A DNA stretch of 64,000 nucleotides from Alphaproteobacteria bacterium (GCA_965228895.1 OZ245842.1:4640001-4704000), one strand, 5' to 3'; positions 16,201-46,809 are shown, numbered from the stretch's first letter. Numbers and translations are program-made. Notes: generated by a model from the sequence alone, not told the origin.

Positions 16201-16204
16201 GCCG

Positions 16205-16813: not shown

Positions 16814-16821
16814 GGCATTGA

Positions 16822-19197: not shown

Positions 19198-19226
19198 TAG
19201 GGGCTGTGGATCTAGACCAGCAATGC

Positions 19227-21956: not shown

Positions 21957-21959
21957 GGC

Positions 21960-22364: not shown

Positions 22365-23425
22365 GGCGAAACCGCCTCTTCTTGCGCCGCCGACAGGGTG
22401 GACAGCCGACGAATGATACCGCCAATCGTCAACACGTCGCTCGCCGCACCGTTGTCGATCGCCGCGCGCGGCATGCCGTCGACAACACAGCTTTCCGGCG
22501 ACTGCACGAGAACCGGGAGACCTTTGTCCGCGAAAGCGCGCGCACCTTCGGCGCCGTCCTGACCCATCCCGGTCAAGATTACCGCGACCGGATGTTTGGC
22601 ACACGCCAGCGCCGTCTTCAGAACCAGGTCGGCCCACGGGTGTACCGGTTGGTCACCCGGCGTCGCATGCATGATGGCCATGGCGCCGCTGGTGTCGGTG
22701 GAAATCTTACTGTCCGTGCCGCCGGGGAGCACCACGATGGCGCCATCTTGAAGAATCATGCCGCTTTCGGCTTCGACCACCTCACGCCCGCTTCGCGTCG
22801 CAAGGTGCGTGGCGAAGTCATGGGTGAAACCGCTTGGCATGTGCTGCGCTATGACAATCGGTGGGCCACCGGGATCCAGGCCGGTGACGAACTCCGTCAA
22901 GGCCCGAGGTCCGCCGGTCGATGCGGCCACGACGATGAGATCGGGCCGCCTTCGCAACGTGACGGTCGACGGCGCCGAAACCACCTTTTCCTGCGCCGAC
23001 GGCTGCCGGCGGACCGGCGCCTCTTGGCTGACCCAATGACGTACCTTGGCTGCCAGCTCTCTCTGGATCCAGGCCATGTCCAGATCAGCCAGATCGCTTC
23101 CCTTCGCCACGACATCGACCGCGCCCAGATCAAGCGCGCGAATGGTGGCACGCGCGCCATCACGCGTCTCCGTGCTGACCATGATGACGGGACAGAGCTG
23201 GTCAGCCGCGATCGTCTTGAGCGCGGCCATGCCATCCATGCCGGGCATGATGATATCAAGCGTCATGATATCCGGGCGAATGCGGCGCGCCAGATCGATC
23301 GCCTCTTCGCCGTCACGGCCCTCACCAACAACGGAGATGCCGTCGGCCTCCAGCATCTGCCGTATCGCGATGCGCATGAATGCGGAGTCGTCGACAACGA
23401 CGGCGCGGATCGTCTCGCCCGTCAT
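22361..23425 (-). CDS. cheB: Chemotaxis methylesterase CheB
   Basis: REC domain plus ASTGG, QHMP, LTGMGQDGA catalytic triad motifs. Confidence 0.93.
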   Translation of the reverse strand: MTGETIRAVVVDDSAFMRIAIRQMLEADGISVVGEGRDGEEAIDLARRIRPDIMTLDIIMPGMDGMAALKTIAADQLCPVIMVSTETRDGARATIRALDLGAVDVVAKGSDLADLDMAWIQRELAAKVRHWVSQEAPVRRQPSAQEKVVSAPSTVTLRRRPDLIVVAASTGGPRALTEFVTGLDPGGPPIVIAQHMPSGFTHDFATHLATRSGREVVEAESGMILQDGAIVVLPGGTDSKISTDTSGAMAIMHATPGDQPVHPWADLVLKTALACAKHPVAVILTGMGQDGAEGARAFADKGLPVLVQSPESCVVDGMPRAAIDNGAASDVLTIGGIIRRLSTLSAAQEEAVSP

Positions 23426-24744: not shown

Positions 24745-24750
24745 CCCACG

Positions 24751-25641
24751 TCAATCCAGTTTTCGGTAAATGACGGCGTTATCGGCTTGGCAGCGCTCGT
24801 ATCGCTCGGCATCAGCGATTCGATCGGTGACGCCCAGCAGCAACAAGCCACCTTGCGCCAATGATCGGGTCAACAGGTCCTGTGTATGCGCCTGGCCCTC
24901 GTCTTCGAAGTACATCATGACATTGCGGCACAAGACGATGTCAAAGTCATCGCCGGGCGGGCGGTCACCCATAAGGTTGTGCTGGTGGAACCGAACGAGC
25001 GCGGAGAGTTCAGGGCGCACGCTCTTTCGGTAGGGCTGCGCACCATCAACGTCTGAAAAGTAGACCATGTTTTCAGCTGGCATCTGCCTGAACGAGTCGA
25101 GTCCCGGCCCACCATAGACACCATCCCTGGCCTTCTGGATCATCTGCGTGCTGATGTCGGTACCCAGAATATCAATGGCCCACGCTTTGGAATCCAGGCC
25201 GGCCTGCAAGAAGGCACGCAGCACAAGAATGGCGAGGGTATAGGCTTCTTCGCCGGAAGCGCATCCAGCCGACCAGATGGCCAGGCGGCGGTCACCAGAC
25301 CGATCACGCTCGTCGATCAGCTCGGGCAGGCCACGCACGCTCAGCATGTCGAGCTGCGCGGGATCGCGGAAGAAGAAGGTCTCATGAACAGTGACGCCCT
25401 CGACCAGCGCCAGCCATTCGGGATCGTGGTCCGATCGACTGACCATGCGATCGACCCAGTCGATGGCCTCGTCAGGCGAGAACCGGGCGACGGCCGAGTT
25501 CAGTTTACGCATCAACAGTTCGTCGCGGCGAAAGCCGCAGCGTTCGCGAAGATCAGCAAACAACCGCTCTGCGCACGCCTCCAAACGACCGTCTGGCATC
25601 TGCAGGCCCGGGGTAGCCACGCTTGTCATCATTTCCGGCAC
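24751..25641 (-). CDS. cheR: Chemotaxis methyltransferase CheR
   Basis: ETFFFRD, IWSAGCASGEEAY, GTDIS, CRNVMMYF; start uncertain. Confidence 0.93.
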   Translation of the reverse strand: MPEMMTSVATPGLQMPDGRLEACAERLFADLRERCGFRRDELLMRKLNSAVARFSPDEAIDWVDRMVSRSDHDPEWLALVEGVTVHETFFFRDPAQLDMLSVRGLPELIDERDRSGDRRLAIWSAGCASGEEAYTLAILVLRAFLQAGLDSKAWAIDILGTDISTQMIQKARDGVYGGPGLDSFRQMPAENMVYFSDVDGAQPYRKSVRPELSALVRFHQHNLMGDRPPGDDFDIVLCRNVMMYFEDEGQAHTQDLLTRSLAQGGLLLLGVTDRIADAERYERCQADNAVIYRKLD

Positions 25642-25648
25642 GTTTGCC

Positions 25649-27154
25649 TCAAGTGGTTTTGAATCGGTCGACCTGATCGCGCGAACGTTGGGCGAGTTTC
25701 GAAAGCTCGATCATGGTTGCGGTAATCTCTTCTGCCGCGGTCGCGTTGCCTTGGCCGATCTCGCGCAGCGATCCGACATTGACCTCAATGCGTGCGACTG
25801 CCGCGCGCTGCTCTTCAACGGCGGTCGCAACGGATCTGACCATGGCATCGGACTCAGACACCCGCTCGGCAATCTGGTCCATGGAGTGTCCCATGGTCTC
25901 GGCCGATTCGACGCTGCGCGCGGCATCCGCCTCGGCCTGTTTGGCAAGCGCCAGGATTTCCTGTGCCGATTCCGCGGCATCCTCGGCAAGCTGTCCAACC
26001 TGTTGCGCGACGACCGCGAAACCCTTGCCCTGATCGCCAGCACGCGCGGCCTCGATCGAAGCATTCAGCGACAGCATATGGGTCTCATTGGCGATCCGCG
26101 TGATCGCGTCAGAAATCCTGTTGATGCGTTTGCTATCCTCGGCAATGCCCCGCGATGTCCGCAGCATGGCTTCCATGCGCTGGCCGCCGTCCTCGACCAG
26201 GCGCGCGGCTGCGGCGGCCTGTTGGGAGGCCTCGCGCGTTGTCTGCGCCGCCTCGGTGATCGATAAGCTGGTCTGCTGCATGGCGTCGACAATCTGGTTC
26301 AAGTCGTCGATTTGCGTCTGAGCGCCTTCGGCGACCTGGCCGATGGCGTTGCTGGCCTGGGTCGCGCCACCGGCGACCTGTGTGGTGTTTTGCGACAGTT
26401 CGCGCAAGGCGGCCTGCGTCTGCTCCATCAGCGTGTTGAACGACGCCGATGCCTTGCCGATCTCGTCATCGCGCTCGTAGACATGGCGGCGCGTGAAGTC
26501 GAGCTCGTCGGCGACTTCTTCGAGCAGCCGGCTTAGTTCGCTGACTGGCCTGACGATATGGCTGCGTACCAAAATGCCGGCGAAGACGGTCAGCAGCAGG
26601 ATACTAACCACCGGACCGATGACGATCGGCAGCCTGGCATCCTGCAACAGCATCAACGTCGTTTCACGATCGGCGAAGACCCGTTCGGAAATATCGTCGG
26701 CCAACGTCTTGATCGCGCCCAGCGCATTGTTCAGCTCAACCGACTGCGCCTGGCCGATCTCCTGGGTTTCGGGATTGGCAATATAGTTCCTGAGTTCGTA
26801 GATCGATGTCAAAAGCTCGTTGTGGCCGGCCTGGATCCATTCCTGATCGGTCAAAACTTCCAGGGAGGCGCTGATTTCGGTCGTAAGCGCGGCCATTTCG
26901 CCACGCGCCTGCAACCGTGTCGCGCTATCGACACCCTGCCGCGCGCGCTGTTCCTGAAGCGACAACTCCAAAAGGTCGCCCTTCAGGTCCTGGATCAAAA
27001 TGATGTCTTCAAAGTAATCGTTGGTCAGCCGGTCGATCCTGAGCTCGACCTCGCGCAGTTGGACGATAGCGTTGGTGACCAAAGCCAAAGCCAGCAGCAC
27101 TGCCAAGAAGAGCAACGCGTAGAGCTTGGTACTGATCGACATCGAACGAAACAT
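25649..27154 (-). CDS. Methyl-accepting chemotaxis protein (TM-sensor-TM-HAMP-signalling domain)
   Basis: Two TM helices, HAMP (DEIG), hairpin tip LSLNASIEAARAGDQGKGFAVVA. Confidence 0.92.
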   Translation of the reverse strand: MFRSMSISTKLYALLFLAVLLALALVTNAIVQLREVELRIDRLTNDYFEDIILIQDLKGDLLELSLQEQRARQGVDSATRLQARGEMAALTTEISASLEVLTDQEWIQAGHNELLTSIYELRNYIANPETQEIGQAQSVELNNALGAIKTLADDISERVFADRETTLMLLQDARLPIVIGPVVSILLLTVFAGILVRSHIVRPVSELSRLLEEVADELDFTRRHVYERDDEIGKASASFNTLMEQTQAALRELSQNTTQVAGGATQASNAIGQVAEGAQTQIDDLNQIVDAMQQTSLSITEAAQTTREASQQAAAAARLVEDGGQRMEAMLRTSRGIAEDSKRINRISDAITRIANETHMLSLNASIEAARAGDQGKGFAVVAQQVGQLAEDAAESAQEILALAKQAEADAARSVESAETMGHSMDQIAERVSESDAMVRSVATAVEEQRAAVARIEVNVGSLREIGQGNATAAEEITATMIELSKLAQRSRDQVDRFKTT

Positions 27155-27347
27155 GGCAACCACCCCTTCGTCACGGCACAAGCGCCGTGACCATCCCCCT
27201 GCAGCGGTGTCTTTATCTCATAAGAGCGCGCTATAGTTAAAGCCGACCATAACCCATCGGTTGTGGCGTCAAAGGTCTGCCGCCCAGAAATCGGGCGCTA
27301 TATGATCGCCGTCACATACCCAAACGCCCAGAACGAGGACGTCAACA

Positions 27348-29570: not shown

Positions 29571-30803
29571 TCACTCCAGCAGCGCGGCTTCATAGGGAAA
29601 CTGCGATAGCCGTTCGTGACCGTCCTGGGTGATGAGCACCTGCTGTTCCAGCTTCACGCCATCACGCTCACCCACCGCGCCGATATAGCTCTCGACACAG
29701 ATCACCATGCCGGGCTCGATCGTGCCATCGTAGACGAAGCTGTCGCGAAAGACCGGTTTGACTTGCGGATACTCGTCACACATGCCGACGCCATGGATCA
29801 CGCAGGCATAGGCGTTCTGCCGGAACTCTTCGGGGACCGGCCAGGCTTGCTCGCGGATCTCGCCCAGCGTGATGCCCGGGCGCATCAGTTTCAGGTTCGT
29901 CTCGACCTCGTCCATCGCCAGCCGGTAAAGCTCTTTCTGGCGTTGCGTCGGCTTGGACGGACCGCAGTGGAAGGTCCGCGAGATATCCGCGAAGTAACCG
30001 TACGGCCCGACCATGTCGGTATCGAAGCCGACGAGGTCGCCGTCCTCGACCTTCCGCGGCGATGCCTCCTGAAGCCACGGATTGATCCGCGGTCCGGAGG
30101 CCAGCATGCGCCCCTCGTGCCAATCGCCGTTGTTGGCGAGGTTGGTGTAGTTCAGCAGCGCCCATAGCTGGACCTCGCTGACACCCGGTCGCAGGGCGTC
30201 CTTCATCTTGGCCGCCCCCAGTTCGGCGACGGCGACGGCCCATTTGATGCAGGCAACTTCGTCGGGCGACTTGATCACGCGCGCCTCCTCGGCGATCGAA
30301 ACGCCGTCGCCGACATCCAGGCCGCGCTGCATCAGCGCCTGGGTGACGCTGGGATTGGTGTATTCGATCATGACGCGGCGGTTGTCGGTGCCGATTTCAC
30401 CCAAGTAGTCGACGACATCGCCGGCCAGCAGCCGCGCTTCATCGGGCAGCTCCTGTGCACCGTCGAAGAACGAGTGGGCCCGACCGGCGCGCGTCTCGTC
30501 GACACCGGGCGGATCGCCGAAACTGTTGTAGATGACGACCGGGCCCTCCTGCGGCACGAACAGGTAGGTCGACGGAATGTGAGACTGGAAGAGCCCGTAG
30601 GTGCGATAATCGACCGCGTAGCGCAGGCTGATCGGGTTGACCAGGATGCACATAGCGGCGTCGTGGCGCTTCAGGGCTTCTCTGATCCGGCCCAGGCGAT
30701 AAGCAAACAAACGGTCGAAATCGATCGCCGGCATATCCCGGTACCGGGAGAGATCGCTCCAGTCGTCATTCGAGACAATCGCGTCGATGGTGTGATCAGA
30801 CAT
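29571..30803 (-). CDS. dddP: M24B-family enzyme, DddP-like (putative DMSP lyase)
   Basis: ASGPRINPWLQE, FDTDMVG, DISRT, HGVGMCDEYP, CVES, KLEQQVLIT match DddP motifs as recalled; activity not proven. Confidence 0.7.
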   Translation of the reverse strand: MSDHTIDAIVSNDDWSDLSRYRDMPAIDFDRLFAYRLGRIREALKRHDAAMCILVNPISLRYAVDYRTYGLFQSHIPSTYLFVPQEGPVVIYNSFGDPPGVDETRAGRAHSFFDGAQELPDEARLLAGDVVDYLGEIGTDNRRVMIEYTNPSVTQALMQRGLDVGDGVSIAEEARVIKSPDEVACIKWAVAVAELGAAKMKDALRPGVSEVQLWALLNYTNLANNGDWHEGRMLASGPRINPWLQEASPRKVEDGDLVGFDTDMVGPYGYFADISRTFHCGPSKPTQRQKELYRLAMDEVETNLKLMRPGITLGEIREQAWPVPEEFRQNAYACVIHGVGMCDEYPQVKPVFRDSFVYDGTIEPGMVICVESYIGAVGERDGVKLEQQVLITQDGHERLSQFPYEAALLE

Positions 30804-30912
30804 GATGACGTCCCGCAGCCATGCATTACCGTCTCGCACAATCACGCCCGAACCAGCGTCGTGTCAAAGCTTTGTCGTCATCGATGTTGGGGACGGCCCT
30901 TAAGGGCGTCGG

Positions 30913-35009: not shown

Positions 35010-36113
35010 ATGACAGTACCGTTCCCTTTGATCGAAGCCAGCGGCTCACCGCTGGAGCGCGGGCGGCAGATCGGCCGCCAGGCCGGTGACCGTATTGCCG
35101 TCAGTGTCGGCATCTACGAGCGTGCTCTGGCGCGCGGTAACCTCACGTGGCCCGAAGTGCAGGTCATCGCGCAACGGTACCTGCCTCGGCTTGAGTCCTA
35201 TGAGCCGCGCTATGTCGAGGAGATCCGAGGCATTGCCGAAGGCGCCGACCGGCCGATCGAGGACATCGTCGCGCTAAACGCGCGAACCGAACTGCTCTAC
35301 GACAAGAGCCTGCGCGACGACCCGACACCCGACGGCTGCACCGGCGCCATCGCCCTGCCCGACATCACCGCCGACGGCCATATGCTGCACGGACAGAACT
35401 GGGACTGGATGGATGACTGCAAGGACTCCGCCATTGTCGTGCGCCAGGAACTGGAGGACGGCACGCGCCTTCTGGTCTTTGTCGAAGCCGGCATTGTCGC
35501 CCGGGCCGGGTTCAACAGTCATGGCATTGCCGTCACCGGCAACTTTCTCGCCTGTCCGCAACTGCCGGCCGACGGCGCCGTTCCTCTGCCGTTGATGCGC
35601 CGCAAGATCATCGAGTCCCGCAGTTTCGCCGAAGCGCTGAAGCACGTTCTGCGAACGCCGCGCTCCTTCGCCAACAATCTCATGATCTCCGATGCCGCGG
35701 GCGAAGCGGTCGACCTGGAGACGACGCCTGAGGAAGTCTTCTGGGAAAAGCCGGACGGCGGCCTTTTGGTGCACGCCAACCACTTCCGCACCGAGGCCGC
35801 GCGCGCCCGCGTTGTCGACACCGGGCTCGCCATTTCACCCAGCTCGATCTATCGCGACAGCCGGGTTGAGCGGCGCCTGCGACAGAGTGCCGGCAGCATC
35901 GCACGCGGTGATTTGGAAGATGCCTTTGCCGACACCTATGGTGCGCCATCGGCGGTCTTGGCATCGCCCGGTGCCGACGAGGAGGCCAACGTCAAACAGC
36001 CGTCATCCACCGTCGCCACCGTCATCATGGACACGACCGCCGGCGTCATGTGGGTAGCGCCCGCACCCTATGCGGGCGAAATCACGTTCACCGAGTACCG
36101 CCTGAACGACTGA
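35010..36113 (+). CDS. C45-family Ntn acyltransferase/peptidase
   Basis: LNARTE, DGCT (autoproteolytic Cys), GQNWDW, HANH. Confidence 0.85.
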   Translation: MTVPFPLIEASGSPLERGRQIGRQAGDRIAVSVGIYERALARGNLTWPEVQVIAQRYLPRLESYEPRYVEEIRGIAEGADRPIEDIVALNARTELLYDKSLRDDPTPDGCTGAIALPDITADGHMLHGQNWDWMDDCKDSAIVVRQELEDGTRLLVFVEAGIVARAGFNSHGIAVTGNFLACPQLPADGAVPLPLMRRKIIESRSFAEALKHVLRTPRSFANNLMISDAAGEAVDLETTPEEVFWEKPDGGLLVHANHFRTEAARARVVDTGLAISPSSIYRDSRVERRLRQSAGSIARGDLEDAFADTYGAPSAVLASPGADEEANVKQPSSTVATVIMDTTAGVMWVAPAPYAGEITFTEYRLND

Positions 36114-36187
36114 TCGCCGACGAGGGTAGAACGGGCCTGTCCATCAGGCGCCCTCCTGAAAGCGTGGGTTGCGGGCAGAAAAAGCCC

Positions 36188-36201
36188 TTGATCCGCATCA
36201 A
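36188..36201. promoter_or_regulatory. FNR/FixK-type binding site
   Basis: Perfect TTGAT-CCGC-ATCAA in the intergenic region ~240 bp upstream of the V-ATPase operon. Confidence 0.7.
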
Positions 36202-36441
36202 TGCGGCTTGTCCAGCGACACGCTACGCAGGAATGGCAACCATAATGTGTTGCAAAACTGTCATGGGCGACGGATAGCGTCGTCAGCGCCTTCACGTCAC
36301 CTGTTTGGGACCATTCTGGCATGCTCAACATTCCAGCGATGACGCTGGTCACCCGCGACGCCCACCACCGCCCCTTGACGAAATGTGCCGCCAGCTCGGC
36401 CATAGCGAAATCGGCATGATGCGCGCCATCGGAGGGACAGG

Positions 36442-37830
36442 ATGACGTTGGATCTGGTTCGGTACTCGCGCGTCCTTGAGATTGTTGGCGACATCATCAA
36501 GGTGTATGTGCCGATGCCCGCTGCCGGCGAGCCCCCGGTGGTTCGCCTGCGCGACCTGGCGATGGTCGAGGACGAGGGGTCGGCAAAGTCGCTCGCCCAG
36601 GTCATCTCGGTCGAGCGCGACGCCGTCGCCCTCCAGGTTTTCGCCGGCACCAAGGGCATTTCGACCCAGGCCTCGATCCGGTTTCTCGGCCACCCCCTGC
36701 ACGTCACCTACTCGCCCAACATTCTGGGCCGCGTGTTTCGCGGCGATGGCCAGCCGTTGGGCGCGGGGCCTGATCTTGAGATGGATCCGAAGGTCGCCAT
36801 CGGCGGACCATCGGTCAATCCCATGCAGCGCAGTCTGGCGTCCAGGATGATCCGCACGGACGTGCCGATGATCGATGTCTTCAATTGCCTGGTCGAAAGC
36901 CAGAAGATCCCGATCTTCTCGGCCGCCGGCGAACCCTATAACCCGCTGCTGGCGCGGATCGGTATCCAGGCCGATGCCGATGTCGTGGTGTTCGGCGGCA
37001 TGGGCCTGATTTTTGACGACTATCACTTCTTTGCCCGATCGTTCGAGGATGCGGGCGTCTTTGCCCGCACGGTGATGTTCGTGAACCAGGCCTCTGACCC
37101 GATTGTCGAACGCCTGCTGGTGCCGGACATGGCGCTCGCGGTCGCCGAACACTTCGCCGTGGAGGAAGGCAAACGCGTTCTCGTCCTGTTGACCGACATG
37201 ACCTCGTTCGCGGACGCGTTGAAAGAGATCGGCATCGCCATGGAGCGCGTGCCCTCCAACCGCGGCTACATGGGCGATCTCTATTCACAGCTGGCGCGCC
37301 GGTACGAGAAGGCATGCAACTACACGATCGGCGGATCGGTGACGATCCTCAGCGTGACGACGATGCCGGGCGACGACGTCACCCATCCGGTACCCGACAA
37401 CACCGGTTACATCACCGAAGGCCAGTTCTATTTGCATGATGGTGCGCTCGACCCCTTTGGGTCGTTGTCGCGTCTGAAGCAGCATGTGATCGGCAAGGTG
37501 ACTCGCGAAGACCATGCGCAGATCATGAACACGATGATCCGCTTCTACGCCGGCGCGCGGGATGCGGCCCAGAAACAGGCCATGGCGTTTGAGCTGTCCG
37601 ACTTCGATAGGCAATTGCTGAAGTTCGGCGAGCTGTTCCGCGAGCGCTTCATGGACATCAATACTTCCATGCCGCTGGAGGACGCGCTCGATCTGTCATG
37701 GAGGACGCTCGCCGACTGCTTCAAGCCGGAACAGCTCCTGATGCGCCAGTCGCTGGTGGAAAAGTACTTTCCCGGCGCCGAGCGAGACTTAGCCGATACG
37801 GCGTCGCGCGAGGGCGCAGACGCCGCATGA
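36442..37830 (+). CDS. ntpB: V/A-type ATPase subunit B
   Basis: SQKIPIFS, VLVLLTDMT, RGYMGDLYSQLARRYE, TMPGDDVTHPVPDNTGYITEGQ. Confidence 0.95.
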   Translation: MTLDLVRYSRVLEIVGDIIKVYVPMPAAGEPPVVRLRDLAMVEDEGSAKSLAQVISVERDAVALQVFAGTKGISTQASIRFLGHPLHVTYSPNILGRVFRGDGQPLGAGPDLEMDPKVAIGGPSVNPMQRSLASRMIRTDVPMIDVFNCLVESQKIPIFSAAGEPYNPLLARIGIQADADVVVFGGMGLIFDDYHFFARSFEDAGVFARTVMFVNQASDPIVERLLVPDMALAVAEHFAVEEGKRVLVLLTDMTSFADALKEIGIAMERVPSNRGYMGDLYSQLARRYEKACNYTIGGSVTILSVTTMPGDDVTHPVPDNTGYITEGQFYLHDGALDPFGSLSRLKQHVIGKVTREDHAQIMNTMIRFYAGARDAAQKQAMAFELSDFDRQLLKFGELFRERFMDINTSMPLEDALDLSWRTLADCFKPEQLLMRQSLVEKYFPGAERDLADTASREGADAA

Positions 37831-37881
37831 CCTGAACACATGCAAGCGATCGTATCGCAAGCAAGGAGAGGCCAGTAAACG

Positions 37882-38487
37882 GTGGCACGGTTACAGCTCA
37901 ACAAGGCGGCACTCGCCAAGGAAGAGAGCAAGCTGGACTCGTTCAGGCGGTTCCTGCCATCGCTGGATATGAAGCGCCAGCAGTTGAATGCCGCGCGGGC
38001 CGGCGCGGTCGAATCGGTCGCGATCACGCGCCGCGAGATCGATCACCTAAAGCGCAGTGTCAAAAAGAATCTGCCGATGCTGGCGAACAAGAACATCGAC
38101 CTGACGGACATCGTGAAGGTCAGCAAGGTCGACATCGCGACGCAAAACGTTCTGGGCACCCAACTGCCCGTTCTGCAAAACGTCGACATCGACATTCGGC
38201 CCTATGCGCTTATGGCCAGGCCCCATTGGGTCGATCGTCTGGTCGATGACCTCCGTCACATGCTTGAACTCAGGCTTCGCTTGCGTGTCGAGGAACGCCG
38301 CGTCGACCTGCTTGCAGCCGCCCTGCGCACCGTCACCCAGCGGGTCAATCTGTTCGACAAGATTCTCATTCCCCAAGCCCAGACGAACATCAAGCGCATC
38401 AGGATCTATTTGGGCGATGCTGAGCGCGCGGCGGTCGTGCGCTCGAAGATCGCCAAGAACAAACACCGCAAGGCGCACGCGGCATGA
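37882..38487 (+). CDS. ntpD: V/A-type ATPase subunit D
   Basis: LPSLDMKRQQL, TQRVNLFDKILIP; GTG start after AGGAG. Confidence 0.92.
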   Translation: MARLQLNKAALAKEESKLDSFRRFLPSLDMKRQQLNAARAGAVESVAITRREIDHLKRSVKKNLPMLANKNIDLTDIVKVSKVDIATQNVLGTQLPVLQNVDIDIRPYALMARPHWVDRLVDDLRHMLELRLRLRVEERRVDLLAAALRTVTQRVNLFDKILIPQAQTNIKRIRIYLGDAERAAVVRSKIAKNKHRKAHAA

Positions 38488-40283
38488 CGCTGATCGCCCT
38501 TAAAAAGGTAACCCTATGCGGCCTTCTGACCGAGAAGGCGGCCATCCTGGATCGCTTGCAGGATCTGGGTTGTCTGCATCTGGTCGCGCTGCGGCCGCCG
38601 CCTGCCGAACCGGAAAACGCGACCCCGCGAAGGGCCGAGGAATCATATCGGGCGCTTCGCTTTCTGATGGATATGCCGAACAAACGACGGCAAATTCCTC
38701 GAGATCCCAACTTTGATATTCGAGAAGTGACGCGCGCAGCGCTCGATATCAAGCAGCGTCTGCGCCACCTGTCCGACCGGCGCGACTTTCTGGAACAGCG
38801 CATCAAGGGTCTTGAACCGTGGGGTGATCTGTTTTTCCCGCCGCATGAGGCGTTGGCCCATTACCGCCTGTGGTTTTATGCCCTGCCGTCCGGAAAGGCG
38901 CGCCTGCTCAACGACCTCGATGTGCCGTGGCAGGTCGTGCACAGGGACCCGCGGCGCACCTATGTCGTGCTGATCGCCCGCGACGAGCCGCCAGACGATA
39001 TCTTGCCCGTTGCCCGCACCCATACCGGGGCGCTGCCGCTCAATGAGTTGCGGCTGCAACTGGACGAGTGCGAGAGCGAGATCGAATCCCTGACCGCTGA
39101 TCGCCTGGCGCTCACCCGGTACATCTACCTCATGAGCGTCAACATGGCCGAGGCCGAGGACGCGTCGGCGCGCGCCTTTGCCGGCGAACAAACGCTCGAT
39201 GGCGACGGCGTCGTCGCGGTGCAGGGCTGGGCGCCGGCGGACCGGTGCGGCGACGTGCGGGACTTCGCTGGTCAACATGACCTGGCGTGCCTGATTGAAG
39301 ACCCCGGCCCTGACGACGATCCGCCCACACTGCTGGACAATCCGCCGGCCTTGGCGGCAGGCACCGATCTTTCGCTGTTCTATCAGGTGCCGGGTTACCG
39401 CACCTGGGACCCCTCGATCATCCTGTTGTTTTCTTTTGCGCTGTTCTTCGGAATGATCGTCGCCGATGCCGGCTACGCCCTGGTCATGCTGCTGTTGCTT
39501 GGCATGTTCTGGAACAAACTTGGCCGCACGCCCACGGGCCAACGCTACCGGTCCTTCGGGCTTATCGTGCTTGGCGTGGCACTGTTCTACGGCATCCTTG
39601 CCGGCGGTTATTTCGGCATTGCGCTGCCGCCGGGATCGGTCCTCGACAGGATCGACCTCATCGACATGAACAACATCGAGACCATGATGAGGCTGTCGAT
39701 CATCATCGGCGCGCTCCACCTGATTCTTGCCAACGGCGTGCTTGCCTACAACAACCGCCGTCATCCAGCGGCGCTCGCCAAACTGGGCTGGATCGCCGTG
39801 ATCATCGGCGGGCTTGGACTGTGGCTGGCAGGCGGCGGGAGCTCGCTGGAACTCGCCGCTGGCGCCCTGTTGGGCGCCGGCCTGCTGACCATCTTTCTGT
39901 TCAGCAGCAAGCGACCCATCGACAAACCCCTCGACGTTGCACGCCGCGGCATCGACGGCCTGCTCGCCCTGACCAAGATAAGCAGCATGTTCGGCGACGT
40001 CCTGAGCTATATGCGCCTCTTTGCACTCGGTCTTTCGAGCACCTCTCTGGCGCTGACCTTCAATGACCTGGCCGTTCAGGTGCACGATGCCGTGCCCGGC
40101 ATCGGGCTTTTGTTCAGTCTGATGATCCTGCTGCTTGGTCACACGATGAACCTGGCGCTCGCGGTCATGAGCGGTGTGGTGCATGGGCTCAGGTTGAATT
40201 TCATGGAATTTTACAACTGGGGAATGCCGGAAGAGGGCCATACGTTCGAGGCCTTCGCCCGCACCAAGGTGAGTCATGAATGA
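38484..40283 (+). CDS. ntpI: V/A-type ATPase subunit I (a)
   Basis: PPTLLDN, FFGMIVADAGY, DVLSYMRLFALG (essential Arg), HGLRLNFMEF. Confidence 0.93.
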   Translation: MTLIALKKVTLCGLLTEKAAILDRLQDLGCLHLVALRPPPAEPENATPRRAEESYRALRFLMDMPNKRRQIPRDPNFDIREVTRAALDIKQRLRHLSDRRDFLEQRIKGLEPWGDLFFPPHEALAHYRLWFYALPSGKARLLNDLDVPWQVVHRDPRRTYVVLIARDEPPDDILPVARTHTGALPLNELRLQLDECESEIESLTADRLALTRYIYLMSVNMAEAEDASARAFAGEQTLDGDGVVAVQGWAPADRCGDVRDFAGQHDLACLIEDPGPDDDPPTLLDNPPALAAGTDLSLFYQVPGYRTWDPSIILLFSFALFFGMIVADAGYALVMLLLLGMFWNKLGRTPTGQRYRSFGLIVLGVALFYGILAGGYFGIALPPGSVLDRIDLIDMNNIETMMRLSIIIGALHLILANGVLAYNNRRHPAALAKLGWIAVIIGGLGLWLAGGGSSLELAAGALLGAGLLTIFLFSSKRPIDKPLDVARRGIDGLLALTKISSMFGDVLSYMRLFALGLSSTSLALTFNDLAVQVHDAVPGIGLLFSLMILLLGHTMNLALAVMSGVVHGLRLNFMEFYNWGMPEEGHTFEAFARTKVSHE

Positions 40284-40731
40284 AGTCATCATCGCGCTGG
40301 GATGGTTCGGTATCTACGGCCCCATGGCGCTTGGCGCGATCGGCAGCATCATAGGCTGTGCCATCGCCGGCCAGGCCGCGATCGGCGCGATGCTGGAAAC
40401 CGAAAGCGGCTATGGCCGGTACGTCGGCGTATCCGCCATGCCGTCATCGCAGATCATTTACGGTATCGTCATCATGTTCACGTTGAACCGCGATGTCACG
40501 GTGGACGCTTCCGGCGGCCTCTTCGCGGTCGGCATCCTTGCCGGCGTCGCGTTGATGTTTAGTGGAATCAAGCAGGGCCAGTGCTGCGCGTCGGCGATCA
40601 ACGCGACCAAGGAGAAGCCGGAGATTTTCGGCCTGTCGCTGGCACCGGCGGCGATCGTGGAAGGCTTCGCCGTCTTTGCGTTCATCTTCGCACTCGTGAT
40701 CAGCGCGGGTATCCCAGGGGCCGGCGGATGA
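40276..40731 (+). CDS. ntpK: V/A-type ATPase subunit K (4-TM proteolipid)
   Basis: Four hydrophobic helices; PSSQIIYG, FSGIKQG, IVEGFAV. Confidence 0.92.
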   Translation: MNEVIIALGWFGIYGPMALGAIGSIIGCAIAGQAAIGAMLETESGYGRYVGVSAMPSSQIIYGIVIMFTLNRDVTVDASGGLFAVGILAGVALMFSGIKQGQCCASAINATKEKPEIFGLSLAPAAIVEGFAVFAFIFALVISAGIPGAGG

Positions 40732-41420
40732 GCAACAACCATCGACAGGAGATCATTTCGTCCGGCGTGGATTCGCTCATCAAGCGGTTGCGCGAGGAAG
40801 GTACGTCGGCCGGCAAGCAGGAAGCCGAGAAGATCGTCGCGGCGGCTGAAGCGAAAGCGCAAGCCATTCTTGAGAAAGCCAACGCCGAGGCGCGCGCTAC
40901 CGTCGTGGCTGCCCGCAAGGAAGCCGATGAGCTGAAGAACGCCGGCGCGGACGCCCTGAAGGTCGCCATGCGCGACACGGTTCTGGATATGAAGATGACG
41001 CTGATGCAGCGCTTCAGCAGCGACGTGGAACGCCTGGTTTCGCGTCATCTCCAGGACAAGGATGTCTTGAGGCAAATGGTGATCGAGGTTGCCGGACGCG
41101 TCGCCGACGACGCCAACCTGAGCGAAGGCGAAGCAATCGACATTGTCCTTCCCGAGCACGTTGTTGGGTTGGATGAGCTTCGCCAGGATTCCGAGGAGCT
41201 GGAACACGGCAAGCTGACGGACCTGGCGCTTGGGCTGACAGTCGACCTGCTGCGCGATGGCGTAACGTTTTCGGTCGTCGACGATGCGCAGTCGGGCCTG
41301 CGTGTCCGTCTTGTTGGCAATGACATCACACTGGACTTGACCGACAAGGCGGTCGCGAACCTCTTGCTGCAACATCTGCAACCGCGCTTCCGGCTCATCC
41401 TCGATGGCGTCGTCAAGTGA
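40728..41420 (+). CDS. ntpE: V/A-type ATPase subunit E
   Basis: LIKRLREEG followed by an Ala/Glu/Lys coiled coil, C-terminal LQPRF; ATGA overlap with K. Confidence 0.82.
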   Translation: MSNNHRQEIISSGVDSLIKRLREEGTSAGKQEAEKIVAAAEAKAQAILEKANAEARATVVAARKEADELKNAGADALKVAMRDTVLDMKMTLMQRFSSDVERLVSRHLQDKDVLRQMVIEVAGRVADDANLSEGEAIDIVLPEHVVGLDELRQDSEELEHGKLTDLALGLTVDLLRDGVTFSVVDDAQSGLRVRLVGNDITLDLTDKAVANLLLQHLQPRFRLILDGVVK

Positions 41421-41438
41421 TGTGGGATTAGCGCAAGA

Positions 41439-42134
41439 ATGGCCGACGCCTATCTCTATGTCATGTTGATCTCGAGCTTGCCGCAGCCGATTTCGTTGTT
41501 CGGCGCCAAGCAAACGCCGATCTCACGGATCAAGCTGGAGCGCAGATTGCGCATGCTGACGCCTGAAGATGCGGCGACCTTGGCCATCATCGTGGACGCC
41601 GTTGCGTGGTACCGCCTGCCCATGAGTTTGTCCGAAGAAGAGACGCTAGAGCGCGGTCGTCACGCGATGGCGGAGGTCGAGCATGAAACATTGCGCAACA
41701 TCATTCGCGACCGTCTGGAGTTGCGGACATGCGTCGCGGCCCTGCGTCGCCGTCACAAGGGCGAGCCGGCGCCCGCACCGAATCCGCCCTGGGGCTACGG
41801 CCGTTGGACCCGGCGTATCGCGGCGAACTGGGGAGAGCCTGGATTTCGCGTCGAGGGGGCTTTCCCTTGGATCCGCGAAGCCGACCAACTGCTCAAGGCT
41901 GGCGATTCGCTCGGTCTTGAACGTCTTCTGATGCGTCAGGTCTGGACAAAGCTCAACCGCTACCGCGCACTTCACTTGTTCGACTTCGAGGCGGTCGTGA
42001 TCTATGCGCTGCGCTGGCACATCATCGACCGATGGACACACTATGACGGCGCCGTCGCCGGCGAACGCTTTGACCGGCTTGTCGACGCTGCCCTGGGTGC
42101 GCAGGCGGTGCTACCATGGGACAGGACGGTATGA
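41439..42134 (+). CDS. DUF2764-like protein (putative V-ATPase subunit C equivalent)
   Basis: YVMLISSLP N-terminus and FDFEAVVIYALRWHIIDRW C-terminus; position between E and A as in Chlamydiae/Bacteroidota-type operons. Confidence 0.75.
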   Translation: MADAYLYVMLISSLPQPISLFGAKQTPISRIKLERRLRMLTPEDAATLAIIVDAVAWYRLPMSLSEEETLERGRHAMAEVEHETLRNIIRDRLELRTCVAALRRRHKGEPAPAPNPPWGYGRWTRRIAANWGEPGFRVEGAFPWIREADQLLKAGDSLGLERLLMRQVWTKLNRYRALHLFDFEAVVIYALRWHIIDRWTHYDGAVAGERFDRLVDAALGAQAVLPWDRTV

Positions 42135-44029
42135 CGGACCGCCGGGATAACGCTCCCGTATCCCGATCCCCGGCGGACGACAGTCCGCACGGTGGCGCCA
42201 TCAACGCGAGCGCGCGTGTTATCAACGTGCAAGACGACCTCGTGACAATCGAGGCCCTGCAACAAGACGACGGCTCCTTCTCCCGGCTGGTCAAGAACGA
42301 GGTCATTTTTATCTGCCCGACCAGGCTCAATGCCGAGGGCGAGCAGGAGCGTCTGGAGGCGGAGATCCTACGGGTTCACGGCCGAACGGCCGACGCCCAG
42401 GTCTACGAGAGCACGGATGGCGTCGGCGCCGGCGATCCCGTTGAGCAGAGCGGCCTGTTGCTTTCCGTCACACTGGCGCCGGGCCTTCTGGGCCAGGTCT
42501 ATGACGGTCTTCAAAACCCGCTGAAGAACCTTGCCGATCAGCACGGCGTTTTTCTACCGCGCGGCGTTCAGCTTGCCGCCGTCGATCAGGAGAAGAAATG
42601 GCCCTTCTCACCGGTCGCGCGCCCGGGTGACAAAGTAAGGGCCGGCGATGTCTTGGGGACCGTGCCCGAAGGCCGCTACGTCCACAAGATCATGGTCCCC
42701 TTCGACTGGCCGGGCGTTTACGACGTGAGCTGGATCCAGGAGGAGAACGTCAACGTGAACCAGACGGTCGTGCGTCTGCGCGATGATGCCGGTCACGAAC
42801 GGGACGTGTCGCTCAGCCAGCGCTGGCCGGTGCGCCGATCCATCGATTCCTCGCTGGTACGCCAGGGCGCATCACACCGTCTGTTTCCCGATGAACCCTT
42901 GATCACGACGCAACGGCTGATCGATACGTTTTTTCCCATCGCGCGCGGCGGCACCGCATGCATTCCCGGGCCGTTCGGCGCCGGCAAGACCGTGCTGCAG
43001 AACCTGATTTCGCGCTACTCAGCGGTCGACATCGTGATCGTCGTCGCCTGCGGTGAACGGGCCGGCGAGGTGGTGGAGACGATCACCGAATTCCCGCGGC
43101 TGAACGACCCCCAGACCGGCGGTGCGCTGATGGACCGCACCGTCATCATCTGCAACACGTCGTCCATGCCGGTCGCCGCGCGCGAGGCGTCGATCTATAC
43201 CGGGCTGACGCTGGGCGAGTACTACCGGCAGATGGGCTACGACGTGTTGCTGATCGCCGATTCAACATCGCGCTGGGCGCAGGCAATGCGCGAGACGTCC
43301 GGGCGTCTGGAAGAGATCCCGGGCGAAGAGGCCTTTCCGGCTTATCTCGATTCGTCGATCAAGTCGGTCTACGAGCGTGCCGGTGTCATGCAGACGAACG
43401 ACGGATCGGTCGGCAGCCTGACCATGATCGGCACGGTGTCGCCGGCCGGCGGCAATTTCGACGAACCGGTAACCCAGTCAACCCTTGCGACGGTCAAGGC
43501 CTTCTTAGGCCTGTCGGCCGAGCGTGCCTATAAACGGTTCTATCCCGCCGTTGACCCCCTGCTCTCCTGGTCGCGCTATCTCGACCAGATGGCGGACTGG
43601 TATCACGACAACCTGGGCACCGAGTGGATCGCGTCGGTCAAGGACATGCAGGCCCTGCTTCATACCGGCGATTCGATCCTTCAGATGATGCAGGTCACAG
43701 GCGAGGAAGGCATCACGTTGGAGGACTTTGTCACCTACGAGAAGGCGTTGTTTGTCGACATGGTCTATCTGCAGCAGGATGCGTTCGACGACGTCGACGC
43801 ATCGGCTTCCCTTGACCGGCAGAAAACCACATTCGCCAAGATCCGCGAAATTGTGAAGCAGGACTACGCCTTCACGGACAAGCATGACGTGCGCGACCAC
43901 TTCACGCGGCTGACGGGGCTGTTCAAGAACTTCAACTACGCCAGCAGCGATTCGCCCGACTACGACTCACTGCTCAAGCAGATCGATGCGTTGACCGCGG
44001 CAAAGCGTGCCGTTGCATCGACCGGTTGA
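42131..44029 (+). CDS. ntpA: V/A-type ATPase subunit A (catalytic)
   Basis: GPFGAGKT Walker [39 protein letters not shown]. Confidence 0.96.
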
Positions 44030-44055
44030 GGCGATCTGGGGCCAGCTGCCCTAAC

Positions 44056-44222
44056 AAAAAAGGGGCCAGCGCTAGAGCGGATCATGGTTGGATGGAACCG
44101 CTTGACGGTCCCATCCAACCATGTGAATCCGCTCTTTATCGATGAGTAGAGCAGATTCACCCGTCTTGATGTCATCGCGAAGCGATTCCATCAAGACAGG
44201 ATCTGCTCTACCGCTGGCCCCT
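44056..44222 (-). terminator. Intrinsic terminator interrupted by a repeat insertion
   Basis: Arms AGGGGCCAGCG (44061-44071) and CGCTGGCCCCT (44212-44222) with an A6 tract at 44056-44061 (U-tract on the minus strand), downstream of the minus-strand SBP gene. Confidence 0.7.
44073..44210. mobile_element. TA-flanked MITE-like repeat family B, copy 1 (138 bp)
   Basis: TAGAGCGGATC...GATCTGCTCTA terminal inverted repeats, two internal hairpins, near-identical to 45780-45917. Confidence 0.82.
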
Positions 44223-44248
44223 GTTTCGTTGCGGCATCTCAACCGAAC

Positions 44249-45415
44249 TTAGAAACCGGCTTTGATCTCGTCGAACATGTTGATGTACTTCTCGCGCACA
44301 TCCGGTTCGATCTCACCGAAGAATCGGCTGTTGGCCATCATGGTCTCGGGGTCGGTGATGCCGAGATCCTCGAGCGTAGCCGGATCGACCAGGGCGAAGG
44401 TCTCTTTGTTCGAATGGCCGTAGCCGTACATTTCGACCAGGTTCTTGCCGGATTCCGGTGAAATCCAGGCGTCGATGAACTCGTAGGCCTTGGCTTCGTC
44501 GCCGGGACCTTCGACCCCCAGCGTCAGACCGCAGACCCACGTCCAGATGCCCTCCTTCGGGTTCATGTAGACGACGTCGACGCCCTGGTTCTTGAGCTCC
44601 ACCACCGCGCTGTTCCAGGCATAGGAAGCGACCAGTTCACCGGATGCCAGGCCCTGCTCGACACTGGTCTGATCGGTCCAATAATAGCGCAGGATCTCAC
44701 GCTGTTTCTTCAGCAGCACCTGTGCCTCGGCCAGCTCCTCTTCCGTCATGTCGAAAACGTTCTCGGCGCCGATGACCGAACCGACCACCGCCATAACGCC
44801 GTCGACGGAGTCGAAGATCCCGAGACGCCCGGCATACTTCTCGTCGAACAGGATGGCCCAGGACTCGTTCTTTTGGTCTGGCGTATCGACATACTCGGGC
44901 GCCAGATCGGGCCGGAACAGCACCGAGGAATTGCCCCAGTCGGCGGGGATGAAGTAGGTTTTGCCATCCTCGCCGATGCTGCCCGGCAGATCCTTCAAAC
45001 TTGGGAACACGTTGCCGAAGTTCGACAGCCGGCTGGTATCGATCGGCCGGATGACTCCGGCATCGCGCCAGCGTCGGGTGCTGTAGGTGCAGGGGTGTGC
45101 AACATCCGGATAGAATCCGGCACGCAGTTTCTGCAACGCTTCTTCTTCTTCGCCGAACAGCGTGTAAGCGGGGGTTGCACCATACTTTTCGACGAAGGGC
45201 ACGTAGAACTCCGGCAGCTCGTAACCACCCCAATCGAACACGTGCAGGGACTCGTCGATCGGCAACGAGTCCTGGGCGCGTACGCCACCCGGCCCAAATG
45301 TCATCGTCATCATGCCGACGCCGGCGGCGGCCAGCGCGCCGGTCGCCTGTCGCCGCGTCAGATCGCAGTTGTCGATGCGCGACCGAAACTCTTGAATGTC
45401 CATGGACTTCACCAC
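44249..45415 (-). CDS. PotD/PotF-family ABC substrate-binding protein with Tat-like signal
   Basis: LTRRQ twin-Arg leader, FDWGGY, PADWG, YAWN, PKEG, DAWISPE. Confidence 0.88.
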   Translation of the reverse strand: MVKSMDIQEFRSRIDNCDLTRRQATGALAAAGVGMMTMTFGPGGVRAQDSLPIDESLHVFDWGGYELPEFYVPFVEKYGATPAYTLFGEEEEALQKLRAGFYPDVAHPCTYSTRRWRDAGVIRPIDTSRLSNFGNVFPSLKDLPGSIGEDGKTYFIPADWGNSSVLFRPDLAPEYVDTPDQKNESWAILFDEKYAGRLGIFDSVDGVMAVVGSVIGAENVFDMTEEELAEAQVLLKKQREILRYYWTDQTSVEQGLASGELVASYAWNSAVVELKNQGVDVVYMNPKEGIWTWVCGLTLGVEGPGDEAKAYEFIDAWISPESGKNLVEMYGYGHSNKETFALVDPATLEDLGITDPETMMANSRFFGEIEPDVREKYINMFDEIKAGF

Positions 45416-45594
45416 GATACCGTCCTCCCTCTAGGTTCGCCATTCAGCCTAGACCAGACAGCCAAGTTGAATCCACGCACTGGCCCTGCACGTTTGACGT
45501 TAAGATTTGTCACCATAAAGGAGGTTCGGGATGAGGAGGGGTCGGCAGAAACCGACGTGGAGGCCGCCGCGCCCACATCGCGCTGTAAAGAAAA

Positions 45595-45681
45595 TGGTGC
45601 CCCCAGGGAGACTCGAACTCCCACGTCCTTGCGGACAACAGATTTTGAGTCTGCCGCGTCTACCAATTCCGCCACAGGGGC
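45595..45681 (-). tRNA. tRNA-Leu (CAA)
   Basis: GCCCCTG acceptor stem, GGAATTGGTAGAC D-arm, anticodon arm GCAGA-CTCAAAA-TCTGT, long variable arm, GTTCGAGTC, encoded CCA; 87 nt. Confidence 0.97.
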
Positions 45682-45779
45682 CCCGAAATCAGGGCGGCGA
45701 GCATACGCGCGCGCTGGCCGCGGTCAAGAGCCGTGGAGAGGTCTATCAGATAGTCTTGGACGGGTGGCGCAAGGGGTCC

Positions 45780-45917
45780 TAGAGCGGATCATGGTTAGAT
45801 GGGACCGCTTGACGGTTCCATCTAACCATGTGAATCCGCTCTTTATCTATGAGTAGAGCAGATTCACCTGTCTTGATGTCATCGCGAAGCGATTCCATCA
45901 AAACAGGATCTGCTCTA
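45780..45917. mobile_element. TA-flanked MITE-like repeat family B, copy 2 (138 bp)
   Basis: CTAGAGCGGATC...GATCTGCTCTAG; same length and orientation as copy 1, with a compensatory G-C/A-T change in the first hairpin. Confidence 0.82.
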
Positions 45918-45945
45918 GCCTCCCCTCGCAAAGGGGAGGAACAAC

Positions 45946-46809
45946 ATGTCAGACATTTCCGTTATAGGGCTTGGCAAGATGGGGGCGGCACTCGCCGCCA
46001 CGCTGTTGGAAAGCGGCCGGTCGGTGACCGTTTGGAACCGCTCACCGGATAAGGCCGCCGCTCTCGTCGAGGCCGGCGCATCGCTTGCCTCGTCACCGGA
46101 AGACGCGATCGCGGCGAGCGACGCGACCATTGTCTGTATCAAGACCCACAAGACGACAACCGACCTGCTGAAACCTCTCTCCGGTCATCTGAATGGCAAG
46201 ACGATCCTGGATCTGTCGACCGGCGGCGCGGAAGAAGCCATTGAACTGGTCGACACGCTGACGGCCGCAGGCGCCACATGGCATATCGGCATGATCAACG
46301 CCTATCCCTCCGGCATCGGCAAGGAAGAGACGGCCATTCTGTGCGCCGGCCCGCCTGAGGTGTGGGACCGCTGGGGCGATGCCATCCGCGTGCTCGGCGG
46401 CGCGTCTGCTCATGTCGGCACAGAGGCAGCCGCGGTGCCCGGCCTCTTCGCCGCTATGTTCACCGCGCGCCAGGGGTTCATGTTCGGGCTTATTTACGGC
46501 GGCGCGGTCTGCCGCAAGGCCGGCCTGCCGATGGAGGCGTTTGCCGCGCAGGTGCCGGTGACCCTTGGCATGGCCGGGAACTATGCCGACCTCTTCATGC
46601 GTACCGCACCCACCCGCGACTACGACGATCCCGGCGCGACGGTCGCGGTCTACCTCGCCGCGCTCAATGACGTCCTCGCAACGTTCGAAGGGACCGGCAC
46701 GACCGACGCCTTTCCACGCCTGATGCGCGATCTCGCCCAGCGCGGTGTCGACGAAGGTTATGAAGCCAAGGAACTGACCGCCCTGGTCGAGATGCTGGCG
46801 AACGACTAG
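45946..46809 (+). CDS. NAD(P)-dependent oxidoreductase, imine reductase (IRED)-like
   Basis: GLGKMGAALAATLLESGRSVTVWNRSPDK; lacks the catalytic Lys of beta-hydroxyacid dehydrogenases. Confidence 0.78.
   Translation: MSDISVIGLGKMGAALAATLLESGRSVTVWNRSPDKAAALVEAGASLASSPEDAIAASDATIVCIKTHKTTTDLLKPLSGHLNGKTILDLSTGGAEEAIELVDTLTAAGATWHIGMINAYPSGIGKEETAILCAGPPEVWDRWGDAIRVLGGASAHVGTEAAAVPGLFAAMFTARQGFMFGLIYGGAVCRKAGLPMEAFAAQVPVTLGMAGNYADLFMRTAPTRDYDDPGATVAVYLAALNDVLATFEGTGTTDAFPRLMRDLAQRGVDEGYEAKELTALVEMLAND

Follow-up and report, generated by a model that had tools for sequence, protein, structure and literature searches.

The DNA analysed here is a stretch of 64,000 nucleotides (nt) from an alphaproteobacterium (GCA_965228895.1, OZ245842.1:4640001-4704000), called the window below, which at positions 36442-44029 carries on the + strand seven co-oriented, intact open reading frames (ORFs) for a V/A-type rotary ATPase in the order B-D-I-K-E-X-A, X being a divergent protein of the DUF2764 family. 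This order is the hallmark of a clade that extends over many bacterial groups, and the window operon is an ordinary member of it. Activity, ion specificity and direction of the enzyme are inferred here from its subunits and from the loci of its relatives, and on balance we lean towards an ion pump that is driven by ATP and, in this organism, works with Na+.

Gene order among relatives

To collect relatives, one genome of each species was scanned with the A protein; this gave 80 loci with A proteins 62-73% identical, and the gene order was read by tblastn of the seven window proteins against these loci. The complete order B-D-I-K-E-X-A was found in 71 of the 80, and seven more are cut by contig ends but agree; one of these seven, from a Thiotrichales metagenome-assembled genome (MAG; L077), has a second K gene after A at 6158-6628. 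The two exceptions are Thiorhodococcus fuscus (L035, 1-5570), where D-I-K-E-X-A has no B upstream and a peptidase M48 gene stands in that place, and a MAG labelled Mycobacteriaceae (L074), with X-A alone. The alphaproteobacterial carriers belong to Kiloniellales, Minwuiaceae, Rhodospirillales, Hyphomicrobiales, Ruegeria, Marinibacterium and Roseibium, those among Beta- and Gammaproteobacteria to Thiodiazotropha, Endozoicomonas, Photobacterium, Nitrosomonas and Thiorhodococcus, and further carriers are many Cyanobacteria together with Gemmatimonadota, Planctomycetota and Myxococcota. The same order is present on two Rhodobacterales plasmids, Tateyamaria omphalii pDOK1-4-1 (84 kb) and a MOBV plasmid of Qingshengfaniella alkalisoli (323 kb), in which several of the I, E and X genes are labelled hypothetical in RefSeq. 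On the Tateyamaria plasmid (L081), X at 8370-9061 is annotated as two short ORFs, 8370-8924 and 8930-9061, and may be interrupted.

An earlier note on this DNA, made from the sequence alone, had read the order as a circular permutation of E-X-A-B-D-I-K, with the emphasis on this genome. Comparison with an annotated Parabacteroides record confirmed the permutation; as a feature of this genome it was not upheld, since the same order is standard in a large clade and both plasmid copies agree with it. The apparent oddity of the window is thus removed, the permuted order being the norm of a widespread clade. Presumably E-X-A-B-D-I-K is also the order of the chlamydial operon. The permuted order would be the derived state, the other having been verified in one outgroup, Parabacteroides. 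The permutation, a break between A and B, would then have arisen once, in the ancestor of the clade and not in this genome, possibly by tandem duplication followed by loss of the ends, or through a circular intermediate reopened elsewhere. Adjacency of A and B under joined matches was also observed in records of Peptoclostridium, Enterococcus and Rubrobacter.

The order is not accompanied by conserved surroundings. None of 10 flank proteins of the window matched any of 83 loci (80 from genomes and three from a plasmid collection) at E ≤ 1e-10, and no flanking gene family common beyond single genera was found among them; because of the latter, the seven genes appear to be inherited as a unit. 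The survey of this order across genomes, which the earlier note had called for, found it widespread, and this goes part of the way towards the objection raised in that note itself, that the order might already be well described and vertically inherited; V-type ATPases of Labrenzia and Synechococcus WH 5701 were listed as early as 2008 (PMC2359735). No description of the order B-D-I-K-E-X-A, or of a linkage of arginine deiminase or PPK2 genes to V-type ATPases in these bacteria, was found in the available parts of the literature.

Subunits of the operon

Pfam and NCBIfam matches confirmed that the operon is of the V/A type that lacks F and G and contains DUF2764, and the seven frames are intact as had been claimed, the lengths of all seven subunits matching the medians of their homologues. 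B (36442-37830, +, 462 amino acids (aa)) matches PF00006, PF22919 and PF02874 and scores 689.5 bits with the equivalog NF002555 (cutoff 431); its identity with the B proteins encoded at related loci is 67-85%. The catalytic subunit A (42131-44029, +, 632 aa) matches PF00006 (E 2.9e-66), PF16886 (E 3.3e-24), PF22919 and NF003220 (752 bits, cutoff 470), and has a P-loop domain with the Walker A motif GPFGAGKT and the V/A-specific barrel-sandwich insert. Its start is most likely 42131, in an ATGA overlap with X, with an alternative ATG at 42116. The central shaft D (37882-38487, +, 201 aa; PF01813, E 2.7e-37; NF002565, 204.5 bits, cutoff 189) begins with GTG, preceded by the ribosome-binding site AAGGAGAGG. 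K (40276-40731, +, 151 aa) is a four-helix proteolipid with one carboxylate, composed of two PF00137 stretches and scoring 182.5 bits with NF007200 (cutoff 108).

The other three subunits are more divergent. The a-type membrane stator I (38484-40283, +, 599 aa) matches NF004429 over residues 4-594 (E 1.8e-61), below every curated cutoff, and its PF01496 match is confined to the C-terminal end (23.8 bits, cutoff 30.7); as far as these matches go, homology to the V-type subunit I is established and equivalog status is not. Its C-terminal segment SYMRLFALGL contains an Arg, which we take to be the stator arginine. The probable peripheral stalk subunit E (40728-41420, +, 230 aa) weakly matches NF002424 (E 6e-22, 78 bits, cutoff 241) and, below cutoff, PF01991 (E 0.0019), and is 30% identical over 109 aa to the annotated subunit E of Parabacteroides (E 1.6e-9); its position in the operon suits a subunit E. 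It starts at the ATG at 40728, in an ATGA overlap with the stop of K, which gives 230 aa, the median length in relatives; a longer ORF from 40581 was rejected as an artefact. X (41439-42134, +, 231 aa) scores 17.9 bits with DUF2764 (cutoff 24.1, E 0.0026). That family was matched at E ≤ 0.01 by 45 of 50 aligned X homologues, with a best value of 3.2e-11, and BLASTP aligned X with the annotated DUF2764 protein of Parabacteroides (E 6e-6, 33% identity over 58 aa), so that, judged from these comparisons, its assignment to DUF2764 holds at the family level.

The genes had been described as tightly coupled by ATGA-type overlaps. This is correct for D-I, K-E and X-A; B and D are separated by a gap of 51 nt and E and X by one of 18 nt, while I and K overlap by 8 nt. 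The absence of F and G from the operon was borne out, and no gene for G/H or C/d was found in it either: the internal gaps of at most 51 nt leave no space for an extra gene, and the flanking ORFs encode unrelated proteins (a DUF2189 protein, a C45 acyltransferase and a solute-binding protein). Nor was a linked F or G gene found in the loci of relatives, where no family of flanking ORFs of at least 70 aa was common across lineages.

Ion site of the K ring

The roles of L61 (through its backbone), T64, Q65, Q110 and E139 as Na+ ligands in NtpK of Enterococcus hirae have been described previously (PMC2359735). In an alignment of window K with NtpK (2bl2; E 1.7e-8), M55, S58, Q59, Q100 and E129 fall on these five positions in that order, and the window protein keeps all of them, unlike its nearest relatives. 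Because every Na+-ligand position of NtpK is kept, Na+ is the probable ion in the window version. Among 72 relatives, S or T at 58, Q100 and E129 are kept in all, and the variation is concentrated in the column of residue 59 (40450-40452; NtpK Q65), which holds Gln in 35, Met in 32, Phe in four and Val in one. These residues are sorted by lineage. Gammaproteobacteria, Roseibium, Gemmatimonadota and Parabacteroides have mostly Gln, Cyanobacteria and Ruegeria mostly Met, and Kiloniellales and Hyphomicrobiales mostly Phe. Such a distribution suggests that residue 59 may be a candidate switch of ion selectivity.

The DUF2764 protein as a proposed rotor part

The AlphaFold2 model of X is all-helical, with a mean predicted local distance difference test (pLDDT) value of 90.3. 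A complex of D and X was predicted with a score of 0.89, against 0.00 for the best control; at least 96% of the contacts recur between runs, and the pLDDT of the partner is at least 88. A score of 0.89 was reached by 116 of 157 solved complexes and by two of 215 mismatched pairs, a calibration that is roughly applicable here, own alignments having been used. The predicted interface lies on residues 57-139, the middle part of D, which we take to be the membrane-side foot of the shaft, as in solved V/A-ATPases. The invariant columns of X and D are kept in the window copy. The model supports, and does not show, that X is a rotor part seated on the D shaft and standing in for d/C and F.

Phylogeny and inheritance

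Two trees were computed by quick searches under LG+G4 with Shimodaira-Hasegawa approximate likelihood ratio (SH-aLRT) support. The first comprised 73 A subunits; 91 of 150 representatives, being outside 540-690 aa, were left out, and 20 representatives were looked up for names. In the underlying search, which covered 1.84 billion cluster representatives, about one full-length representative stands for the whole clade, and the next best are 42-50% identical. The clade (support 99, starred) falls inside a group of 30 sequences that is split (support 100, starred) from the 43 other representatives. The named members of this group are Chlamydiia, Phaeodactylibacter, Sunxiuqinia, Desulfobacterales, Deltaproteobacteria and Acidobacteriota, and a Lokiarchaeota sequence falls on the opposite side. 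The A subunit of the window groups with the Chlamydiia/Bacteroidota type rather than with the archaeal, Thermus or Firmicutes types.

The second tree combined A and B of 69 loci and the window, 11 of the 80 loci without near-complete A and B having been left out. Six phylum labels require five changes on it, the minimum possible, and Cyanobacteria and Gemmatimonadota form near-clean groups. The window copy sits on a long terminal branch (0.42) as the sister, with support 93, of a starred group made up of Kiloniellales, Rhodospirillales, Hyphomicrobiales, Marinibacterium and Ruegeria. In the best tree, with three unclassified sequences left free, all 26 alphaproteobacterial sequences lie on one side of a branch of weak support (77). 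An approximately unbiased test that had rejected alphaproteobacterial monophyly (p 0.002) was discarded as mis-specified: it forced a MAG labelled 'Pseudomonadota' (L055), nearly identical to Roseibium, to the other side. Three further labels are in conflict with the tree. A copy from a 'Kordiimonas' MAG (L049) is almost identical to that of Ruegeria, 'Salinisphaera sp. G21_0' (L058) lies inside Endozoicomonas, and a Syntrophobacterales MAG (L036) lies inside the cyanobacterial group; bin contamination, mislabelling or very recent transfer may be the cause.

The host was confirmed as an alphaproteobacterium. The closest matches of the SufS protein encoded in the window are proteins named Pseudomonadota (93%), followed by Rhodospirillaceae/Rhodospirillales (73%) and then Alphaproteobacteria, and there is good support for a host of the Rhodospirillales/Kiloniellales kind. 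There is no indication of a chimeric contig. The GC content of the operon (0.61-0.625) lies within that across the window (0.58-0.65), and the GC content at third codon positions (GC3) of its genes (0.77-0.82) is like that of the neighbours and of the rest of the window. The A protein stands at 73-77% to its nearest named relatives, a divergence similar to that of SufS (73%).

The earlier note had considered the operon horizontally acquired. As a recent event in this genome, this is not supported: the copy sits with alphaproteobacterial copies on the A and B tree and its GC content is host-like, so that no recent transfer is indicated. At the level of the clade, transfer between phyla did take place, and some of its members sit on plasmids. 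Within the Alphaproteobacteria, however, long residence plus losses is compatible with the data. The cassette is an accessory trait of patchy occurrence, sometimes plasmid-borne and exchanged between phyla, and the window copy looks long resident in an alphaproteobacterial lineage.

Neighbouring genes in relatives

Genes of the arginine deiminase pathway (arcA, arcB, arcC and antiporters) are direct neighbours of the operon in 11 of the 80 genome loci and on both plasmids (L003:923-4242; L028:12180-18112; L081:2561-3535; L083:1-2965; L048:2504-3511; L001, L004, L012, L050, L053, L058, L059 and L061), where a basic amino acid antiporter and YfcC also occur. The arrangement differs between loci. 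In a Rhodospirillales MAG (L003) the genes arcA-arcB-arcC have the orientation of the operon and stop 35 nt short of B, whereas arcABC, together with an antiporter gene, come after A in Ruegeria (L028); on the Tateyamaria plasmid arcC overlaps B, and in five loci of the Endozoicomonadaceae clade (four labelled Endozoicomonas and one Salinisphaera) arcB lies upstream. The presence of arc neighbours requires at least six changes on the A and B tree. In five loci of picocyanobacteria and Aphanothece a PPK2 gene stands beside the operon (L014:2979-3908, L026, L032, L019 and L054). Since the cassettes of relatives repeatedly adjoin ATP-yielding modules in this way, consumption of ATP by the enzyme is favoured. 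Just upstream of the Parabacteroides operon are the acid-resistance genes for glutaminase A (glsA) and glutamate decarboxylase (gadB); this record (L082, NZ_OY725750.1) is filed as a plasmid and, carrying pheS, glsA, gadB and the V-type ATPase operon, looks chromosomal.

Proposed function and alternatives

In the favoured reading, A3B3 would make up the head, where catalysis takes place, with D as the shaft, E as the peripheral stalk and I as the membrane stator; K would form the ring, and X would substitute for C/d and F, the rotor parts that are missing. Hydrolysis of ATP in A3B3 would turn D-X and the K ring against I and expel ions, probably Na+ in the window version, from the cell. Such a pump would sustain the sodium or membrane potential when respiration cannot, alongside an F-type synthase presumed to be elsewhere in the genome. 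A seven-gene relative in Bacteroides carries the Na+ residues and is dispensable in standard culture and essential in deoxycholate (PMC10197588). A wider proposal is put forward more tentatively, and we think it possible rather than probable: the cassette would be a mobile backup energiser of the membrane, a minimal V-type ATPase of seven subunits that aquatic bacteria living by respiration or phototrophy connect to sources of substrate-level ATP, namely the arginine deiminase pathway in Proteobacteria and PPK2 with polyphosphate in picocyanobacteria. It would maintain an ion gradient during anoxia or in the dark, Gln versus Met or Phe at the position of NtpK Q65 would toggle the coupling ion, and DUF2764 would be a new rotor adaptor that replaces d/C and F.

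Several observations weigh against the favoured reading. Neither arginine deiminase genes nor PPK2 are present in the 64 kb of the window, and the argument from linkage is borrowed from relatives. Gln occupies the column of NtpK Q65 in 35 of the 72 relatives, the nearest alphaproteobacterial relatives have F, M or V there, and M is found in 13 of 14 cyanobacterial K proteins; the choice of ion may therefore differ within the clade, and a Na+ motif, as a feature of sequence, is compatible with use of H+ too. In the structure comparison of X with the Protein Data Bank by Foldseek, no match reached E ≤ 0.001 (best E 0.43), and the fold of subunit d/C was rejected for X, subunit d of the Vo part of T. 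thermophilus (8ywt_M) being at rank 24 with E 1.3 and template modelling scores of 0.28/0.22. The cyanobacterial carriers are freshwater or brackish and not marine, V-type ATPases having been reported from nine of 67 freshwater and five of 17 brackish picocyanobacteria and, in the available part of that study, from no marine strain (PMC9361551); a simple extrusion of seawater Na+ therefore fits poorly. Finally, for Chlamydiae it has been proposed that the V-type enzymes use a Na+ gradient to make ATP (PMC7449678).

This last proposal raises the possibility that the window enzyme runs in the other direction, as a second ATP synthase driven by Na+ (or H+) that harvests a gradient built by other pumps. 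Bacterial V/A-type enzymes can make ATP, that of Thermus being named (PMC10197588), K carries a full Na+ site, and one site per four helices would not forbid synthesis. However, the repeated linkage to the arginine deiminase pathway or PPK2 suits a consumer of ATP better, the distribution is accessory and patchy and includes plasmids, the cyanobacterial relatives also have F0F1 (PMC7434838), and the Bacteroides homologue is not required in standard growth, which together make a synthase unlikely. The same pathway genes could also be read differently, because the arginine deiminase pathway doubles as an acid-resistance system; the enzyme would then be an ATP-driven proton pump for pH homeostasis of the cytoplasm, part of an acid-stress module with ammonia-producing pathways. 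The glutaminase and glutamate decarboxylase genes next to the Parabacteroides operon agree with this, as does the loss of Gln at the NtpK Q65 position in half of the clade, and the V-type ATPases gained by acid-adapted nitrifiers are held to extrude protons, but these are of the archaeal type (PMC13109103, PMC10427799). For the window copy a proton pump is nevertheless rather improbable, given that its K keeps all five Na+-ligand positions, that it has no acid-resistance neighbours in the window, and that the window genes are those of a marine-type heterotroph (DddP-like, choline/betaine), for which acid stress is no obvious pressure.

Two other explanations were considered. A rearrangement that happened once, a foreign island gained recently or a chimeric assembly, in each case confined to this contig, could be suspected from the tRNA-Leu gene 1.5 kb downstream, from the repeated hairpin element that flanks the neighbouring gene and from flanks that are syntenic with no related locus. 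This is already contradicted, and very improbable, as the same order occurs in 71 of 80 loci and two plasmids, GC and GC3 are even throughout, the contig on which the A protein is recorded has 5.53 Mb, and the copy branches with alphaproteobacterial copies at an A divergence like that of the housekeeping SufS. Equally remote is a decaying, non-functional remnant, to which the scores of E, I and X below the curated family cutoffs and the long terminal branch might point: the seven frames are intact and of typical length with translational coupling retained, as are the Walker A motif, the Glu of the K ring and the invariant columns of X and D, and the low scores are common to the whole clade and not to this copy alone.

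Relation to known systems

The nearest known system is the seven-gene DUF2764 type of Bacteroidota and Chlamydiae (Bacteroides fragilis P207, Parabacteroides distasonis), with the order E-DUF2764-A-B-D-I-K. It consists of the same seven families, has no F, G, C or d and places DUF2764 between E and A; its K is likewise duplicated, with one carboxylate and Na+-type ligands, and its A belongs to the same major group of the tree. The window operon differs from the Parabacteroides record in its permuted order, with the break between A and B, and in sequence, the identity being 44% for A and B, 34% for K, 30% for E (over 109 aa), 25% for D and 24% for I, with X alignable over 58 aa. X has 231 aa in the window versus 292 aa in the Bacteroidota type, and the carriers of the window clade, unlike those of that type, are mostly aerobic or phototrophic aquatic bacteria. 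The description of the enzyme type as functionally uncharacterised agrees with the available parts of two papers (PMC7434838, PMC10197588), the latter of which treats the Bacteroidota/Chlamydiae type as biochemically uncharacterised.

The Ntp enzyme of E. hirae provides the model for the proposed action, in which hydrolysis of ATP expels Na+, and its K, although distantly related, has the same five ligand positions. The Ntp operon has the additional subunits F, C and G. Its gene order is different, and the window operon is not claimed to be a member of that system. A functional analogue is the N-ATPase, which is of the F type and not of the V type and has an unrelated operon content. The N-ATPase is a laterally spread accessory Na+ F-type ATPase of marine and halotolerant bacteria, thought to expel Na+ beside the main F-type synthase. 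It is mentioned in one of the papers on nitrifiers cited above (PMC10427799).

Members of the clade have probably been noted before. The genus Roseibium was formerly named Labrenzia, and Roseibium, Synechococcus and Cyanobium are among the 80 relatives with the same order, so that the V-type ATPases recorded for Labrenzia, Nitrosococcus and Synechococcus probably belong to the same clade. In the 2008 list such enzymes are given for Labrenzia aggregata, Nitrosococcus, Beggiatoa, Synechococcus WH 5701 and Kuenenia (PMC2359735, Table 1). In 2020 V-type ATPases were reported from Black Sea Synechococcus, with Leptolyngbya, Methylococcaceae and Rhodospirillaceae as the closest carriers, and their presence beside F0F1 was called enigmatic (PMC7434838). 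The available parts of these papers on Labrenzia and Synechococcus give presence, and are silent on gene order, on the DUF2764 subunit, on the ion site and on the neighbours. The gain is modest and lies at the level of the clade, where four points deserve to be kept: the fixed permuted order, the Q/M/F variation of the ion site, the predicted contact of D and X and the repeated linkage to ATP-yielding modules. A minimal V-type ATPase present in at least seven phyla and on plasmids gains a testable reading, that of a pump driven by ATP, probably coupled to Na+ and supplied from arginine fermentation or polyphosphate, along with a one-residue candidate ion switch and a candidate role for DUF2764. 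Culturable carriers such as Ruegeria, Roseibium, Tateyamaria, Endozoicomonas and Cyanobium make these ideas directly testable.

Other features of the window

The intergenic region upstream of B (36114-36441, +, 328 nt), with GGAGGG 7 nt before the ATG of B, is presumed from its position alone to be the promoter region. No promoter sites in this region and no terminator after A were found by a sigma-70 based scan, which is uninformative for this host. No riboswitch or leader RNA was found in an Rfam scan of 35900-46000, which returned a tRNA and a sub-threshold match to a miRNA family (32 bits, gathering score 66) that was taken as chance.

A double-hairpin repeat of 139 nt, with hairpin arms of 18-19 nt, lies just 3' of A (44072-44210) and again at 45779-45917, the two copies being 95% identical; two matches were found in the window versus none expected. 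The copies bracket a gene for a PotD-like binding protein (44249-45415, -) and a tRNA-Leu(CAA) gene (45595-45681, -). The repeat matched no Rfam family and looks like a miniature inverted-repeat transposable element (MITE) or an intergenic repeat of the repetitive extragenic palindromic (REP) type.

The window also holds suf genes, genes for choline/betaine transport with BetI (9876-13822) and a DddP-like gene (29571-30845; 286.9 bits, under the NCBIfam cutoff of 600 bits). A chemotaxis cluster at 16190-27181 encodes a CheC-like protein, a hybrid histidine kinase, CheA, CheY/CheB, CheR and a methyl-accepting protein. A 186-aa ORF at 58108-58668 (-) has a short match (E 1e-11, residues 79-137) to models of IscB/Cas9d endonucleases, and its product is probably a stand-alone HNH-type nuclease domain.

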